From Rickettsiales bacterium (GTDB lineage Bacteria; Pseudomonadota; Alphaproteobacteria; Rickettsiales; UBA3002): a stretch of 64,000 nt of DNA. Both the position numbers and the translations under genes were made by a program. The notes under the pieces were generated by a model. The model saw nothing but the letters and a program-made list of their open reading frames with translations. It was not told the DNA's origin and did no database searches. The stretch's first letter is position 1. Each line of letters starts with the position of its first letter. The DNA lies in contig JALEGK010000030.1 in the NCBI GenBank assembly GCA_022763105.1, positions 358 through 64,357 on the forward strand. Reading direction: 5' to 3'. This document shows, one piece after another, positions 19,813-64,000 of the stretch.

Positions 19813-20127
19813 ATGTCAAAAATCTCCGATTTATCCCAACTGCTTAGCAGATCTATCGCACTTCTGAAGCAGCAAATGCGCGAGCTAGAAAAAGAAGGCG
19901 GCAACGAAGAAGAGCAGGAGCTGATCGCCAAACGCTGGCAACGGATATTTGGCAAGGATTCGGTGGTGGCGGTACTCGCCAAATTGGTGCAAATGCACAA
20001 ACAGCTCGAAGAATTAGCCGCCAACCAACCCGATGAAGCGCAAGATGCAACCAAACCGCTAAGCGAAGCCGAATGGGACTGGCTAGAGCAGTGCTTGGCC
20101 CGCCATCGCGCTAAAAAAACTGAATAA
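19813..20127 (+). CDS. small helical protein, candidate GTA small terminase (g1-like)
   Basis: 104 aa, looks all-alpha, first + strand gene upstream of TerL; size matches RcGTA g1. Function inferred from position and size only. Confidence 0.35.
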   Translation: MSKISDLSQLLSRSIALLKQQMRELEKEGGNEEEQELIAKRWQRIFGKDSVVAVLAKLVQMHKQLEELAANQPDEAQDATKPLSEAEWDWLEQCLARHRAKKTE

Positions 20128-20186
20128 TTTACCGCTTCTTAAGCTTTTACGCCTATCATATAAGAGCAAAAACAATAGAGGCGGCA

Positions 20187-21110
20187 ATGGCAGATAAAGA
20201 GAAACTCGATCCCAAAACAGCGATACTGCAACTGCTAGGAGAGCAGCAGGGCGGGTTTATGCATCAACTCAAAGAAGCCGCACACCCCAACTTCCAAAAA
20301 GGATTTTTTAGCGAAGATTTCCGTACGAGCTTGCAGCCAGGCTCATTTGCTATTCTTGATGTGCTTGAGGGATACGAACCAGTGCTTGCAGAGCTAAAGA
20401 AGTTTGAGGCAGGGCAAGAAAATGATCTGAAAGGAAAACTTGAGACCTTTATTAAAGAGCATGGGACTAAATTTCATTATGGAAAAGGTGGTGAAATTGG
20501 CGGTGGCGATAAACTCACCAGCGCGTTCAAAATACTAGATGGAAATGAAAAAGCCATGGATGCGGTCAAAGCATTGCGCGAGCCTATTTACGGCACAAAG
20601 GAACAGCAGGCGCATGGGTTGATCGATAAAATGACCAAATCGTTGGACTTAGAGCTGAATCCGGCCCAACGTCGCGATTTGGATACCAGTAAATATGCGG
20701 GCGAGCCTGATTGGAAGGACAGCTTGGCAACGCTACGTTCGGCAAGTAAAGCGCTTCGCGATGAGATGAAGGCCTATGCAACAGCCTTATATGGTGATAA
20801 ATCGCCCATTGCTGGCATGGATAAAGGCCAAAGAGAAGAATTTCTGAATGGATTTCGTGATCGTATCGCGACGAAAGCCCAAGCAGTACAAGGCGCAATC
20901 GGTTCATTTATTGAAACCCATCTGCAGGATGCGGAGCCTTACCTGTTTGATCCGCAGATTGGTAATTTCAGGGCAGGGCTAGGAAATGCACAATCCATCA
21001 CGAAAGGCTTCAATGAACAGGCAAAAGACCTGATAGAAAACGGTGGCGTGCAGGATATTCAGCATCGACAAGAGATGAGTAGACCCGATCGCGGCGGAAT
21101 GCAGATCTAG
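20187..21110 (+). CDS. hypothetical protein (effector-like C-terminus)
   Basis: 307 aa, GAGG RBS, ends MSRPDRGGMQI. Confidence 0.7.
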   Translation: MADKEKLDPKTAILQLLGEQQGGFMHQLKEAAHPNFQKGFFSEDFRTSLQPGSFAILDVLEGYEPVLAELKKFEAGQENDLKGKLETFIKEHGTKFHYGKGGEIGGGDKLTSAFKILDGNEKAMDAVKALREPIYGTKEQQAHGLIDKMTKSLDLELNPAQRRDLDTSKYAGEPDWKDSLATLRSASKALRDEMKAYATALYGDKSPIAGMDKGQREEFLNGFRDRIATKAQAVQGAIGSFIETHLQDAEPYLFDPQIGNFRAGLGNAQSITKGFNEQAKDLIENGGVQDIQHRQEMSRPDRGGMQI

Positions 21111-21113
21111 CGA

Positions 21114-21392
21114 CTAGACCTCGAAGCCGTAGCGCTCTTTTAACATCTCTTTGATATCATCGCTTGGCTCTTCGCCGTAGCACGACGCAATGACCTTACC
21201 AAAATCTTCCAGATCGATCATACCGTCACCTTCAATCGCCTGCATAAAAGCAGTCTCACGAGGAGGCTCGACCAGCACAAAGTAATAGGCCCAGCGTCCA
21301 GTCGAGTCTTTCGCCTTTAGCTTGTGAATCAGATGTCCCTTTTTCGAGATAATCTGATCCGCAAAGGATTTCTTCTTTGGAGGTTCAGCCAT
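21114..21392 (-). CDS. small hypothetical protein, homolog of 41589-41951
   Basis: EDFGKVIASCYGEEPSDDIKEMLKERYGF vs EDYGVIVESGVGEPTDEVKQRMHDEYGF. Confidence 0.75.
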   Translation of the reverse strand: MAEPPKKKSFADQIISKKGHLIHKLKAKDSTGRWAYYFVLVEPPRETAFMQAIEGDGMIDLEDFGKVIASCYGEEPSDDIKEMLKERYGFEV

Positions 21393-21551
21393 GATAAATG
21401 CGCGCGTACCCTGTTCGTTTTATAACTATTTCCCTTATAGTTAGGCAAATAGCCCAAAAAATCAACCTGCCTGAGCATATGCCCTCTCAAACCCCTCATT
21501 TTCTGCGCAATGTGGCCTAAACGCACATTCATGCACATTTTCCGGGCGGTC

Positions 21552-61864: not shown

Positions 61865-61893
61865 AAAAGCCGACCCGAAGGCCGGCTCTTCTT
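61863..61893. terminator. bidirectional terminator
   Basis: A run, AGCCG.CC-cgaa-GG.CGGCT stem, pyrimidine run, between convergent genes. Confidence 0.65.
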
Positions 61894-61915
61894 ATATCGT
61901 AATCTACAGATCGGA

Positions 61916-62281
61916 TTAGTTGATAATCGCAATCGCTGAAACATGGCGAGGCTTTCTACCAGAATCGGTGTTTGCACCTTGGCCATAAAGAATCGCATCA
62001 TCTTGTAGTACAATCGCGGTACCACCATGTTGAGCTGCTTTATTCTTTAGCGCAGAGATCGCTGCGTCATAATCAGGGAAGGCAGCGGTTGGAACGCGCA
62101 CAATACCAATTTCAGTAAAGCCATTACCAGAAGGTAGGCCACTTAGCACATCTACGCGACCATCATACGCCGCATGCTTTTTATAAGTCGTGTAGGTCGA
62201 TGGGTGGAATTCAGCTGCCATTGCAGCGCCAGCAACCATCATAGCACATAGAGTAACAACAAATGTTTTCATCACACTCAC
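61916..62281 (-). CDS. small exported hypothetical protein
   Basis: Signal peptide (AAMA-AE); EIGIV...LKNKAAQHGGTAIV resembles YbjQ-like alpha/beta domains. Confidence 0.6.
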   Translation of the reverse strand: MSVMKTFVVTLCAMMVAGAAMAAEFHPSTYTTYKKHAAYDGRVDVLSGLPSGNGFTEIGIVRVPTAAFPDYDAAISALKNKAAQHGGTAIVLQDDAILYGQGANTDSGRKPRHVSAIAIIN

Positions 62282-62388
62282 TCACTGATTTGTTTTGAAT
62301 GCAGGCTTTATAACCCATACATACGCGCGCCGCAACCCTTCGCCGCGTTTTTATCCGGTTTCTTCAATCATTTTATCAAGAGGTCATT

Positions 62389-64000
62389 ATGGCATCGCTT
62401 ACCCTTGGCGTGCTGGCACAAGCCGCACCTATTGCCAATCCGGCACTTAATCTGCTCTTTCAAGTCGGCGCAAAGCTGGCTGGCAATGCGCTGGACGATC
62501 AGCTGTTCGGGCAAAGCAGCAACACCCACCGTGAAGGCTCGCGACTAGAATCGCTGCTGGTGCAAAGCTCTACCTACGGCACGATGATTCCGCTTGTGTA
62601 CGGCAATGCGCGTATCGCGGGCAATGTGATTTGGGCCGAGCCAATGAAGGAAGTCGGCACCACCACTACGACCTCACAAGGGGGCGGTAAAGGTGGCGGG
62701 TCATCGACGACATCATTGACGACGGAATATAGCTACTTCGCCACGCTTGCGATTGCGATCTGCGACGGTCCGATTGATAGCATCGAGCGCGTCTGGGCCG
62801 ATGCAGGACAGCTTGATATTTCACTCGGCACGTATCGTTTTTACAATGGCTCAGAAGCACAAGAGCCAGACCCGTATATTGAATCGATTGAAGGGGTGGG
62901 CAGCACTCCGGCGTATCGCGGATTGTCTTACGTCGTCATCGAAGATTTCCCACTCGCCGATTACGGTAACCGCATTCCGAACTTCACGTTTGAGGTGAAG
63001 AAAAAAGCACTCAGCCCAGATGCGGATGATGTTGCCGTAGAAGAACAGCTCAAAGCGATGGTGCTGATTCCGGGATCAGGTGAATTTGTCTATGACGACA
63101 CCAAACAAGAAAAGATCGACGGCCAAGACATCAATGGAAATTTCGTGCAACAAGGTCTGCGCTCATCGATCAACCAGCACACACCATACGGCAAAGCGAA
63201 CGGACTCGTCGCGCTCGATCAACTCGAAGCGACGTGCCCGAACCTCGAATGGATTGCCGTGGTGGTGAACTGGTTTGGTAACTCACTTGATGCAGCCAAT
63301 TGTATCGTGCAGCCAGGCGTTGAATATGCAGATGGGCTGGCGCAAACCACGCCCGATACATGGGCCGTTGGCGGTTATGATCGCTCTACGGCACGTCAAA
63401 TCACCTATGTGGATAATTCCCCAAGATACGGGGGGACACCATCGGATGCTTCACTACTACGTTACCTTTCCGAGATTAAGTCACGGGGATATAACATTTT
63501 GCTCCTTCCGATGATGCTGATGGACGTGACCGACAAGCCGTGGCGCGGAAGAATTTCGGGCACCACGCTGTCAGCCGCAGATTTCTTTACAAAAACAGAG
63601 GGCTATAATGCGTTCATCAATCACTACGCGAATCTTACGAAACAGACCGTTGATGCGATTGTGATTGGCTCGGAAATGATCGGGCTGACCAAAGTGAATG
63701 ATGGCGCGGCCTCAAATCGCTCATTTCCGGCTGTGGATAAGTTTGTGGATTTAGCGGCAACCGTCAAGCAAACCGTGGGTTCTGGCGTTAAAGTCGGCTA
63801 TGCGGCGGATTGGTCGGAATACCACCACACCGATGATGGCTGGTACAATCTCGATCCGCTTTGGGCGTCACCCAATATCGACTTCATCGGTATCGATGCG
63901 TACTTCCCACTCACCGACGCACCGCAATCAACATTGGGCTACGACATCGACACCGTAAAGGATGGATGGACGAGCGGTGAGGGCTACGATTTTTATTACA
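62389..64000 (+). CDS. GTA baseplate megatron / GTA_TIM-barrel protein (g15), partial
   Basis: Hand translation MASLTLG...EGSRLESLLVQSSTYGTMIPLVYGNARIAGNVIWA, PAYRGLSYVV, YGNRIPNFTFEV, YGGTPSDAS, GYAADWSEY; runs off the window. Confidence 0.93.
   Translation, partial: MASLTLGVLAQAAPIANPALNLLFQVGAKLAGNALDDQLFGQSSNTHREGSRLESLLVQSSTYGTMIPLVYGNARIAGNVIWAEPMKEVGTTTTTSQGGGKGGGSSTTSLTTEYSYFATLAIAICDGPIDSIERVWADAGQLDISLGTYRFYNGSEAQEPDPYIESIEGVGSTPAYRGLSYVVIEDFPLADYGNRIPNFTFEVKKKALSPDADDVAVEEQLKAMVLIPGSGEFVYDDTKQEKIDGQDINGNFVQQGLRSSINQHTPYGKANGLVALDQLEATCPNLEWIAVVVNWFGNSLDAANCIVQPGVEYADGLAQTTPDTWAVGGYDRSTARQITYVDNSPRYGGTPSDASLLRYLSEIKSRGYNILLLPMMLMDVTDKPWRGRISGTTLSAADFFTKTEGYNAFINHYANLTKQTVDAIVIGSEMIGLTKVNDGAASNRSFPAVDKFVDLAATVKQTVGSGVKVGYAADWSEYHHTDDGWYNLDPLWASPNIDFIGIDAYFPLTDAPQSTLGYDIDTVKDGWTSGEGYDFYY

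Follow-up and report, generated by a model that had tools for sequence, protein, structure and literature searches.

The gene transfer agent of Rhodobacter capsulatus (RcGTA) is encoded by a cluster of about 15 kb that forms a single operon. A locus in which the same genes keep their order while foreign genes lie between them raises the question of what the intervening genes are and whether the particle genes are still maintained. Such a locus was found in a marine, uncultured bacterium related to Rickettsia. It belongs to a basal, Mitibacteraceae-like lineage of the Rickettsiales, and its ~2-Mb genome (G000) is a metagenome-assembled draft of 81 contigs. The window analysed is a stretch of 64,000 nucleotides of one of these contigs. 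A first-pass annotation had described an intact, colinear and co-oriented set with effector-like cargo at most junctions, and had proposed either an intermediate stage of dispersal or a landing zone coupling an effector repertoire to the particle. Here, we find an RcGTA-type set stretched about threefold by wedged unrelated genes, with its gene order kept.

Order and content of the cluster

Between 26.3 kb and the contig end, Pfam recognised twelve RcGTA-type genes, with the large terminase (TerL) counted as two pieces: TerL, portal, protease, capsid, g6–g8 and g12–g15. The homologues of g2–g8 and g12–g15 thus occupy the + strand in the order of the RcGTA head and tail genes, which confirms the annotated colinearity and common orientation. 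The structural genes are:

19813–20127, +: candidate small terminase subunit (TerS, g1), 104 aa, role assigned from position and size only
26329–27240, +: N-terminal half of TerL (ATPase), 303 aa; Terminase_6N, 0.004, below cut-off
28049–28540, +: C-terminal half of TerL (RNase H-like nuclease), 163 aa; Terminase_6C, 1e-16
32998–34146, +: portal (g3); Phage_portal, 1e-77
37626–38186, +: prohead protease (g4); Peptidase_S78, 2e-32
39071–40333, +: major capsid protein (g5); Phage_capsid, 1e-80
42900–44367, +: g6 adaptor, g7 head completion and g8 tail completion, joined by 4-nt overlaps; Pfam 4e-12, 1e-27 and 3e-22
57373–57972, +: g12 distal tail; DUF2460, 4e-70
57975–58823, +: g13 hub; Gp84_N, 2e-61, and BR0599, 2e-27
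59615–60055, +: g14 peptidase; NlpC/P60, 5e-7
62389–64000 (contig end), +: g15 ('megatron'), N-terminal 537 aa; GTA_TIM, 6e-36

The TerS candidate has no Pfam family; in 12 relatives a small conserved ORF upstream of TerL can be aligned with it, and both have the motif W..LFG.K.S.V..L.KLV. The true capsid start is probably near 39131, as judged from relatives that align from residue ~20, and that of g14 is probably the ATG at 59615; its ORF is open from 59372 and the 5' extension scores poorly on codon usage. The remainder of g15 is found on contig C69 (1–2154), joined to the window by a 27-aa identical overlap, with the domains GTA_TIM (3e-34), Phage-tail_3 (5e-36) and Rcc01698_C (8e-29), so that both the barrel and the C-terminus of an RcGTA-type g15 are present. 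A whole TerL on contig C73 is unrelated to that of the cluster, and no other second copies of GTA genes were found in G000.

The likeness to RcGTA extends to the same families in the same order, from TerL, portal, S78 protease and HK97-type capsid through g6–g8 to g12–g15, and to the three domains of g15. The 17 genes of RcGTA form a compact locus (PMC11409702), whereas in G000 36.0 kb separate the start of TerL from that of g15, antisense genes interrupt the array, TerL is two genes and g9, g10 and g10.1 are absent. These last two features contradict the description of the set as intact. The tail tube g9 (PF06199) and the chaperones g10 (PF11836) and g10.1 (PF09550) gave no match in the whole of G000, even at E≤1, and tblastn with the g9 of relatives found none there. 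Among the other 39 genomes of the family, 28 carry a PF06199 gene, and in L012 and L011 the tail-tube gene lies between g8 and a conserved antisense trio, a position corresponding to 44367/44368 in G000. The tail tube has been lost in G000, as in other Rickettsiales. The ORF directly preceding g12 (56190–57311) is a candidate tape-measure gene (g11), with a weak match to the tape-measure family phrog_167 (E 0.02) and no match in a PDB profile search.

Assembly and inheritance

It is very improbable that the layout results from a mis-assembled metagenomic contig or from a recently integrated phage carrying morons. The draft state of the genome would allow the former, and the latter has a counterpart in phage RDJLphi1, which has inserted genes in its g1–g10 region (PMC11409702). 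However, a 17.7-kb contig made by an independent assembler from run X1, possibly the source sample, spans 26000–39761 with one difference. Contigs from a second sample (X2, 100% identical), one of which bridges 27988–28253 in the TerL gap, and from a diverged strain in another study (X3, 90–95% identical) bridge several junctions. These contigs reproduce the junctions and so exclude an assembly chimera, an objection that had been foreseen. GC content is uniform along the region. No integrase, repressor or replication families were found by Pfam among the ORFs of 19.8–64 kb, the Pfam and repeat scans revealed neither att sites or flanking repeats nor a lysogeny module at the locus, and no repeats or IS elements were found at the cluster junctions. 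The upstream flank genes (17555–18055 and 18924–19649) are present in 16 and 14 loci, the capsid search located the cluster in 37 of 40 family genomes, and flank and gene order are kept across 13 genera. Together with the absence of integrase and repressor, this indicates vertical inheritance at a fixed chromosomal site. The locus resembles phage morons and RDJLphi1 in having unrelated genes between conserved structural genes (PMC11409702), and differs from morons in being chromosomal and vertically inherited, with inserts of native codon usage and no detectable promoter or terminator signature of their own.

A terminase in two pieces

The N-terminal half of TerL is 55–57% identical to the TerL of relatives, keeps the Walker-type motifs and ends in ..WFVRF in the alignment, while the C-terminal half begins with ..ITQSWDTA and has 49 columns invariant across 15 relatives. 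All catalytic motifs are kept in both halves. The split, at residue ~320/330 in the linker between ATPase and nuclease, is found in 21 of 40 family genomes; TerL is whole in 15 (all genus g8), cut by a contig end in one, degraded in one and without match in two. The large terminase would thus be made as two polypeptides. In a predicted complex the two halves scored 0.85 (best of 3 controls 0.00), passing a mark that was attained for 58 of 80 solved complexes as well as for 2 of 110 mismatched pairs, counts that are only rough because the study's own alignments served as input. Model runs shared at least 69% of contacts with a partner pLDDT of at least 82, and the modelled interface comprises residues 292–303 of the N-terminal half. 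Whole TerL structures have been solved, and the pass may therefore reflect likeness to them. The halves probably re-associate by docking of the last strand of the N-terminal half onto the nuclease domain, and the two-piece terminase may be active. With the split kept in 21 genomes, nature offers a way to ask whether a packaging motor needs a covalent link between its ATPase and its nuclease.

The nrdA gene of phage Aeh1, split by mobE, is reportedly an example of 'genes in pieces'; as in the present case, the intervening gene interrupts an enzyme gene at a domain boundary, and neither half is lost. Unlike in Aeh1, the genes in the TerL gap are not homing endonucleases; they are antisense, lineage-variable and, in several relatives, peptidoglycan hydrolases. 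The gap is usually occupied by an antisense gene in the family. Six relatives share a homologous, lysozyme-like one of about 450–520 aa, GH108 lysozyme or PG_binding_3 matches were obtained for three of five tested, and the gap of G004 holds a glucosaminidase (PF01832, 2e-24). In G000 it is filled by:

27247–27984, −: antisense orphan ORF, 245 aa, codon score 0.235

This ORF has no Pfam family and no similarity to the TerL-gap genes of relatives, and membership in their lysozyme family was rejected by comparison.

Genes between the structural genes

Inserts had been annotated at nine junctions, and all nine indeed hold non-GTA ORFs, of 92–734 aa. Besides the TerL-gap gene, the wedged genes are:

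21114–21392, −: conserved acidic protein, 92 aa, paralogue of 41589–41951 (tblastn, alignment)
21868–22608 (−), 22748–23086 (+), 23585–24814 (−), 24820–26328 (−): lineage-specific block, TerS candidate/TerL
28537–29268 and 29265–29999, −: tandem paralogues, TerL/portal
30163–31131, +: ORF, TerL/portal
31167–31937, −: conserved relocated ORF, TerL/portal
32043–32852, +: partial M48 peptidase (Pfam), TerL/portal
34218–35225, +: orphan, portal/protease
35425–36471 and 36468–37577, −: pentapeptide-repeat paralogues, portal/protease
38267–39013, +: 248 aa, two hydrophobic segments, protease/capsid
40559–41521, +: SDR oxidoreductase (adh_short, 3e-44), capsid/g6
41589–41951 (120 aa, 56/80 loci) and 42147–42830 (227 aa, 18/80 loci), +: conserved accessory genes, capsid/g6
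44368–46224, −: conserved antisense trio of membrane-anchored proteins
46418–49764, −: lineage-specific orphans of 686 and 420 aa, codon scores 0.38 and 0.35
49964–52168 (conserved, all-helical), 52212–54239 (relocated), 54370–56190 (conserved), 56190–57311 (tape-measure candidate), +: block ahead of g12
59089–59586, +: DUF2335 membrane protein (1e-15), g13/g14
60947–61864, +: orphan, 305 aa, g14/g15

Judging by codon usage, two further small ORFs (23117–23518 and 60283–60687) are probably spurious. Of the wedged ORFs, nine are conserved in the family and make up 23% of 26329–64000, and 16 are lineage-specific (43%). The description of most junctions as carrying cargo therefore holds for their being filled and less so for the nature of the contents; as judged from conservation, old accessory genes account for roughly a third of the inserts. 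The acidic protein at 21114 has tblastn matches in 41 of 80 loci (77–84% identity) and no match in Pfam, PDB and fold searches. The counterpart of ORF 31167 sits upstream of TerL in 8 relatives, weak homologues of the inserts between portal and protease occupy the same junction in L011 and L013, and a 67%-identical homologue of the DUF2335 protein follows g13 in L057. The trio member 45757–46224 combines an anchor with a Cys-rich SUEL-lectin-like domain, and an AF2 model within the block 49964–57311 is all-alpha with long helices (pLDDT 67.5).

The lineage-specific genes would comprise orphans, tandem duplicates and genes relocated from elsewhere on the chromosome. The block 21868–26328 was found in 0 of 80 loci, has no Pfam family and has native codon usage, and its ORFs 23585 and 24820 are tandem paralogues (28% identity). 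Searches of 5.8 billion proteins and of 1.84 billion representatives returned no match to the 686-aa orphan other than itself. The SDR gene is a relocated chromosomal gene, with a reciprocal best match at 752 kb in the complete genome of G012, far from the cluster there, and ORF 52212–54239 likewise has an orthologue outside the G012 cluster. Orphans have codon scores of 0.24–0.43, as compared with 0.30±0.08 for conserved genes, and are in this respect native. The insert 38267–39013 is also present in the X3 strain, with third codon positions accounting for 12 of the 17 listed differences.

An effector repertoire coupled to the particle found no support. A Pfam family was assigned to only six of 33 non-GTA ORFs (the partial M48 peptidase, two pentapeptide-repeat proteins, the SDR, the SUEL-lectin-like domain and DUF2335), and none of these matches is of eukaryote-like or effector type. 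Most lineage-specific products are soluble, having no signal peptide or membrane segment; hydrophobic segments are limited to 38267, 59089 and the conserved trio, in a scan for signal peptides and membrane segments as distinct from T4SS-type signals. The cargo thus displays neither export signals of these kinds nor the effector domains of a secreted-effector island.

A function for the junction genes may nevertheless be conceived by analogy with the lysis genes and toxin 'morons' in the late regions of prophages: they could be selected, induced with the cluster in a few GTA-producing cells, and their products released at lysis. With the lysozyme-like TerL-gap gene of six relatives and the glucosaminidase in G004, a junction would harbour a particle-release function. 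In L013 and L015 the protease/capsid junction holds RTX-type calcium-binding repeat proteins, several genes at the junctions are ancient and conserved, and products without export signals are what lysis release would predict. We nonetheless consider this unlikely. Seven of the 16 lineage-specific ORFs run opposite to the GTA genes, sister genomes have almost wholly different cargo (most ORFs occur in 0 of 80 loci), two of the inserts have the mentioned G012 orthologues outside the cluster, the TerL-gap gene of G000 is unrelated to the lysozyme family, and no shared promoter motif was found, promoter and terminator scans being no better than shuffles. Still less likely is a stricter form, in which junction genes are expressed only in sacrificial producers, signal-less products are lysis-released, and the two-piece TerL is deliberately kept with a release enzyme, the antisense lysozyme of relatives, between its halves; if true, packaging and lysis would be wired together within one locus.

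Excess of insertions and family comparison

Compared with the complete genome of G012, at least 700 bp of extra DNA were present in 8 of 13 collinear cluster junctions and in 68 of 779 elsewhere (Fisher p 4e-6), a test based on this one comparator, crude longest-ORF gene calls and neighbouring junctions that are non-independent. Among 636 runs of 13 consecutive junctions, 13 had at least five insertions, all in the cluster, and the maximum elsewhere was four. The notion of a landing zone is borne out by these figures. An equal insert density genome-wide, which would have spoken against it, was not seen at the level of junctions, but the share of non-conserved ORFs in the cluster (51–59%) reaches only the 82nd–88th percentile of 38-kb windows. 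At least as much variability is seen in the contig's first 20 kb and in contigs C49 and C57, so that the cluster may just be part of a variable region. Measured between the starts of TerL and g15, the cluster spans 42.5 kb in G009, 36.6 kb in G002, 28.1 kb in G003 and 26.4 kb in G001, as compared with 17.8–21.3 kb in ten genomes of genus g8 and 13.3 kb in G014. The expansion is thus common to the sister genera, 26–42 kb over a family baseline of 18–21 kb.

We think it rather likely that the locus is a vertically inherited RcGTA-type set which has kept the canonical order, is no longer one operon, and has gaps permissive for new genes. Interleaving with antisense and accessory genes would already have been present in the family ancestor, and in the genus of G000 and its sisters the gaps may have become the most permissive site in the genome for new genes, filling while the GTA genes remain under purifying selection. 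The antisense genes argue against a single transcript and suggest separate transcription units, and the hotspot would reflect tolerance rather than function. The lysozyme-like gene of relatives implies that some junction genes may be tied to the particle and not merely tolerated. The excess of insertions makes the locus a suitable example for studying why new genes are tolerated by, or drawn to, some conserved gene arrays.

Selection and relation to other Rickettsiales

Given the lost g9 and the second, whole TerL on C73, it is conceivable that the terminase or tail of the cluster no longer works. In a decaying remnant, a split terminase and a missing tube would yield no particle, and the inserts would mark relaxed constraint on gene order. 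The absence of g10 and g10.1 besides g9, the loss of g13 and g15 in G012, fragments with stop codons in G045 and the scattered, reduced sets published for Rickettsiales (PMC9254644) are compatible with decay, which we nevertheless judge improbable. The 12 recognised genes are open and conserved though synonymous sites are saturated, every motif is kept in both TerL halves across 15 relatives, and head and hub genes persist in 34–37 of 40 family genomes. Relaxed selection, which had been named as a refuting outcome, was not observed: pS is about 0.7 (saturated), and pN is 0.14–0.16 for the capsid, 0.20–0.25 for the portal, 0.245 for the C-terminal half of TerL and 0.30 for its N-terminal half (against L012, pS 0.74). 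These values indicate purifying selection on the GTA genes.

Reduced GTA sets in which the tube is missing or undetected are described in Rickettsiales and Holosporaceae endosymbionts by George et al. (2022; PMC9254644), with stronger purifying selection on head than on tail genes; the main text mentions neither inserts nor a split terminase. G000 is similar in keeping head, distal tail, hub and megatron under purifying selection with the tube absent, and differs from the Rickettsiaceae, where several clusters are spread over the genome (PMC9254644), in having one colinear locus on one contig. Homologues in Rickettsiales were reported by Shakya et al. (2017; PMC5721377) only as small clusters of at most five genes, in contrast to the 12–13 genes in canonical order in the family of G000. 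Published sets being small and scattered, the full-order locus looks like a state before scattering. An intermediate stage of dispersal is thus plausible, considering also the baseline of the family and the longer spans in the sister genera, and the locus would show a domesticated virus operon coming apart while its genes stay under selection. At close range, 13 of the 14 listed differences between the capsid gene and that of the X3 strain fall at third codon positions, and the accessory ORF 41589 has a pN of 0.15.

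Cluster layout and soundness of the assembly

When 50 ORFs between 19.8 and 64 kb were scanned against Pfam, 12 proved to be RcGTA-type genes, all on the forward strand and in canonical order, in a draft genome of 2.06 Mb (81 contigs, 48.6% GC). Together with the ORFs wedged between them they form the cluster, which runs from 26329 to the contig end.

Table. GTA genes in the window (coordinates, strand, identity; Pfam assignments except the TerS candidate)
19813-20127, +, TerS candidate, 104 aa
26329-27240, +, TerL, ATPase half
28049-28540, +, TerL, nuclease half
32998-34146, +, portal
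37626-38186, +, prohead protease
39071-40333, +, capsid
42900-44367, +, g6, g7 and g8
57373-58823, +, g12 and g13
59372 onward, +, g14 (ORF open from 59372; probable start ATG at 59615)
62389 to past the window end, +, g15

Twelve relatives have a small conserved ORF upstream of TerL that aligns with the ORF at 19813-20127, which is a TerS candidate by position, nothing more. Contig C77, which contains the window (C77:358-64357), stops 79 bases beyond it, and its last 27 codons are the first 81 bases of contig C69; the latter holds the remainder of g15 (C69:1-2154) with GTA_TIM, Phage-tail_3 and Rcc01698_C.

A chimeric assembly as the source of this layout is excluded for practical purposes, as contigs from other sequence data reproduce the junctions. 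A single 17.7-kb Logan contig from run X1 (perhaps the source sample) spans 26000-39761 with 1 difference, and short contigs from a second sample (X2), 100% identical, bridge four boundaries: TerL-gap ORF to nuclease half (27988-28253), 35332-35811, protease to insert (37961-38313), and g7 to g8. A strain from another study (run X3), 90-95% identical, shares the inserts 30163-31131, 36468-37577 and 38267-39013, and its contigs bridge the insert/capsid boundary at 38767-39247. The GC content is uniform over the region. One X3 contig joins 31983 to 32905 and omits the M48-like ORF, a weak hint (depth 2.6, with only 24 letters on the shorter side) that this insert is absent from the related strain.

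Expansion across the family and density of insertions

The genes for TerL, portal, capsid, g13 and g15 were used as probes in 40 family genomes, and spans were taken only where all five share one contig, the other genomes being fragmented. Measured from the start of TerL to that of g15, the span was 42.5 kb in G009, 36.6 kb in G002, 36.0 kb in the source genome, 28.1 kb in G003, 26.4 kb in G001 and 13.3 kb in G014, and 17.8-21.3 kb in ten genomes of genus g8 (a genus label, not the gene). Expansion is not special to the source genome. The spans in genus g8 place the family baseline already above the length of a compact GTA cluster, and a group of sister genera is stretched further, each with largely different content.

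The first-pass annotation had proposed that the locus is either an intermediate stage of dispersal or a landing zone for secreted-effector genes. The density of insertions was assessed against a complete 1.86-Mb genome of a relative (G012), with the longest ORFs of at least 90 aa called in both genomes (1,807 in the source genome and 1,765 in G012; 1,037 reciprocal best hits). A match in G012 was found for 64% of source ORFs genome-wide versus 41% in the cluster, or 49% if g12-g14, lost in G012, are counted as conserved. The share of non-conserved ORFs does not by itself single out the cluster: among 214 windows of 38 kb, drawn from contigs no shorter than that, it ranks no higher than the 82nd-88th percentile, and C49, C57 and the initial 20 kb of C77 are as variable. 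The junctions between neighbouring genes give a sharper picture. There were 820 pairs of orthologs adjacent in G012 that lie on one source contig, 792 of them collinear within 30 kb. At least 700 bp of extra DNA was present at 8 of 13 junctions in the cluster versus 68 of 779 outside (odds ratio 16.7, Fisher p 4e-6), as judged from one comparator, crude gene calls and neighbouring junctions that are non-independent, with 1 of the 13 cluster pairs reflecting the relocation of 31167-31937. When 13 consecutive junctions were taken at a time (636 sliding runs), 13 runs had 5-7 insertions, every one of them in the cluster region; no run elsewhere had more than 4. The excess of insertions per junction supports the landing-zone proposal, with no equal density of insertions elsewhere by this measure, and the share of non-conserved ORFs hardly does. 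Repeat searches found neither IS elements nor MITEs, and no flanking direct repeats beyond chance-length matches.

Wedged genes, old and new

Conservation of the wedged ORFs was assessed in two steps: 45 window ORFs were searched against 80 related loci with tblastn, and 1,565 ORFs were then clustered. Judged by this recurrence, part of what had been taken for cargo is conserved architecture.

Table. Conserved genes among and beside the GTA genes
21114-21392, antisense, 92-aa conserved gene, 41 of 80 loci
31167-31937, relocated conserved gene, 9 loci; upstream of TerL in relatives, moved in the source genome
41589-41951, +, paralogue of 21114-21392 after the capsid gene, 56 of 80 loci
42147-42830, conserved gene, 18 loci
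44368-46224, -, antisense trio of membrane proteins; the last member has an anchor and a six-cysteine SUEL-lectin-like domain
49964-52168 (25 loci), 54370-56190 and 56190-57311, +, conserved block ahead of g12

Recognised GTA genes occupy 25% of 26329-64000, nine conserved wedged ORFs 23%, and 16 lineage-specific ORFs 43%. The small acidic paralogues at 21114-21392 (-) and 41589-41951 (+) flank the head module on both sides. They match the capsid in conservation, with 77-84% identity across genera, have a predicted alpha/beta fold and no match in Pfam, PDB or Foldseek, and may be an undescribed GTA-associated component. For the conserved unknowns, PHROGs and NCBIfam gave only matches at E>=0.01, and PDB profile searches with alignments A2 (the 92-aa acidic protein) and A3 (another conserved unknown) had a best E of 0.64. 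AF2 models of 41589-41951 (pLDDT 65.6) and 49964-52168 (pLDDT 67.5) had no Foldseek match at E<=0.001, ESM Atlas returned scores of 0.76 only, and by word-index homology search 49964 had two relatives and 54370 had none.

Three tandem paralogue pairs are found among the lineage-specific ORFs: 28537/29265, 35425/36468 and, upstream of TerL, 23585/24820. This group also holds the SDR gene 40559-41521 and the ORF 52212-54239, both with orthologues elsewhere in G012, and true orphans. One such orphan, the 686-aa protein at 46418-48478, matched only itself among 5.8 billion proteins, and again in an exhaustive phmmer search of 1.84 billion representatives. Codon-usage scores of the orphans (0.24-0.43) resemble those of conserved genes of the source genome (0.30 +/- 0.08; off-frame reads, -0.8), and the orphans are therefore real, native-looking genes; 23117-23518 and 60283-60687 score near 0 and are probably not genes. 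Relative to the X3 strain, third codon positions account for 12 of 17 listed differences in the insert 38267-39013 (40 of 172 differences listed).

The wedged genes had also been described as effector-like, a reading that is unsupported. Of the 33 non-GTA ORFs, no more than 6 have a Pfam family (the SDR, the lectin-like domain, DUF2335, a partial M48 peptidase and two pentapeptide-repeat proteins), none of which marks effectors. Among the lineage-specific ORFs, 38267 and 59089 alone have hydrophobic segments.

Two RTX-type calcium-binding repeat proteins, below all NCBIfam cut-offs, are encoded upstream of the cluster (1150-2514 and 11296-12942), and in the related loci L013 and L015 homologues of these sit between protease and capsid, on the antisense strand. 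Another branch of relatives carries a cytochrome b561-YceI fusion gene between portal and protease (L037:8082-9164; homologues in 17 loci), of which the source genome has a homologue on contig C57.

A terminase in two pieces

In an alignment with whole TerL of relatives, the cut coincides exactly with the interdomain linker: the last N-half residues are ..WFVRF, the C-half starts just before the SWDTA motif, and about 9 linker residues are gone with all motifs kept. Whole TerL is found in 15 of the 40 family genomes, all of genus g8. In 21 the gene is in two parts at residue ~320/330, comprising all 12 other genera with a match and six g8 genomes; of the remainder, one is cut by a contig end, one is degraded and two have no match. 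The 80 named loci, which come from this family and its neighbours, include 22 with whole TerL, four with split TerL and five with the C-half only. The shortest gaps, in G051, G014, G010, G006 and G017, measure 16-41 nt and involve a frame change, and the longest is 1.7 kb; the C-half lies 15 kb off, after the capsid gene, in G005, and the halves are on separate contigs in G008. In G009 and G043 the parts share one open frame with a long in-frame insertion between them, and these forms look like intermediates.

An opposite-strand ORF of 83-523 aa occupies 13 of the 14 gaps of at least 270 nt, and the gap genes of six genomes belong to one family of ~450-520 aa. A GH108 lysozyme match was found in three of five tested members (best 2e-7), one of them also with PG_binding_3, and the gap gene of G004 is a glucosaminidase (2e-24). 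Peptidoglycan hydrolase genes, GH108-like or in G004 a glucosaminidase, are placed antisense exactly between the terminase halves.

Table. Hydrolases in the TerL gaps of relatives
L019:4940-6436, -
L187:1219-2583, -
L202:438-1874, +
L191:850-2244, +

The 245-aa gap gene of the window is unrelated to all of these gap genes; it has no similarity to the lysozyme-like family by BLASTP or hhalign, and the family has no homologue anywhere in the source genome.

A quick tree of TerL-N was built from 45 rows with HSPs no shorter than 240 aa and the TerL of contig C73 as outgroup; its support is moderate (8 of 39 inner branches starred). In this tree, whole genes of other families fall outside and all early branches of the window's family are split, and the whole genes of this family sit inside the g8 clade, among split forms that bear the lysozyme gene. 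This topology suggests repeated loss and re-fusion, or repeated gain. A complex of the two halves was predicted with a score of 0.85 against 0.00 for the best of three controls, a level that 58 of 80 solved complexes attained, as did 2 of 110 mismatched pairs (rough counts, since own alignments were used). The runs share at least 69% of contacts with partner pLDDT of at least 82, and residues 292-303 of the N-half are predicted to contact the nuclease domain; the pass may reflect only likeness to solved whole terminases. Full-text literature searches found no description of a TerL retained as two genes, in a GTA or in a phage.

A second, whole TerL of 479 aa, 47% identical to the cluster N-half, is encoded in a separate module on C73 (L091, 1-6531), in the order ParB-N6/N4 methylase, DUF5681, TerL, DUF2924, serine recombinase. 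The module looks like another mobile or packaging element, and similar extra TerL copies occur in G007, G042 and G051.

Missing tail genes and comparison with known elements

The families PF06199 (tail tube), PF11836 (g10) and PF09550 (g10.1) had no match anywhere in the source genome at E<=1, nor did tblastn with 14 g9 copies from relatives find any. In L012 and L011, the two closest named loci, a PF06199 protein of 137-138 aa (1e-14) directly follows g8, and PF06199 was found in 28 of 39 other family genomes. In the window the g8 stop codon adjoins an antisense gene at 44367/44368; with this and the absence of PF06199, the GTA set is therefore tube-less. The antisense trio as an inverted g9-g10 block was ruled out, both by the nature of 45757-46224, a membrane-anchored six-cysteine lectin-like protein, and by relatives carrying this trio member plus g9.

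By gene content the locus belongs with the RcGTA-type elements and would work like them. A Rickettsiales pattern of a missing tube, with head, distal tail, hub and megatron retained, has been published (PMC9254644). The locus fits the reduced, tube-less Rickettsiales form of George et al. 2022, but differs from it in being single and colinear, in a quantitatively exceptional load of wedged genes and in a terminase in two pieces. It also differs from the Rickettsiales clusters of at most five genes described in a 2017 survey (PMC5721377). What deserves follow-up is the hotspot reading, together with the two-piece terminase seen across the family.

G012 has kept TerL, portal, capsid and a g9-like gene and has no g13 or g15 match, a loss pattern opposite to that of the source genome. 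Extra tail-tip modules occur in many family members and not in the source genome; second g13-g15 copies, ~50% identical, lie on other contigs in G001, G004, G005, G007, G017, G033, G042, G043, G044 and G048.

Relatives, selection and transcription signals

Among named records, the capsid of the window is best matched by assemblies of uncultured 'Alphaproteobacteria/Rickettsiales bacterium', among them L012 (titled UBA6178, 82% identity), L015 (UBA3002, 76%) and L019 (UBA6189, 71%). UBA6178 and UBA6189 are placed in Candidatus Mitibacteraceae in one preprint (10.1101/2021.08.31.458344), and another treats the UBA3002 family as basal and free-living (10.1101/2023.01.31.526412); 'GTA' and 'gene transfer agent' are absent from the main text of both. 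L086, considered as a canonical GTA reference, was dropped for being prophage-like: its TerL has 652 aa and its tape measure 668 aa.

Synonymous divergence from L011, L012 and L013 is saturated (pS ~0.7), and therefore only pN versus pS, not dN/dS, is usable. The pN values were 0.14-0.16 for the capsid, 0.15-0.18 for 41589-41951, 0.20-0.25 for the portal, 0.245 for TerL-C, 0.27-0.31 for the protease, 0.30 for TerL-N and 0.32-0.49 for g6-g8. In the capsid, third codon positions account for 13 of 14 listed differences from the X3 strain. With low pN against saturated pS and these third-position differences, relaxed selection on the GTA genes was not seen.

A promoter and terminator scan of 26000-45999 gave 32 and 25 sites, no excess over shuffled sequence (26.2 +/- 4.6 and 20.7 +/- 4.5). 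A hairpin with an 11-bp stem, followed by T7, lies at 39039-39064 directly before the annotated capsid ORF, so the capsid gene may possess start signals of its own. The highest-scoring promoter-like site of the region (27893-27920, 11/12 matches) lies 130 nt upstream of TerL-C. Outside the order, the capsid of L077, on the chromosome of the planctomycete Limnoglobus roseus, is 58% identical to that of the window, above several Rickettsiales loci, and may derive from lateral transfer.
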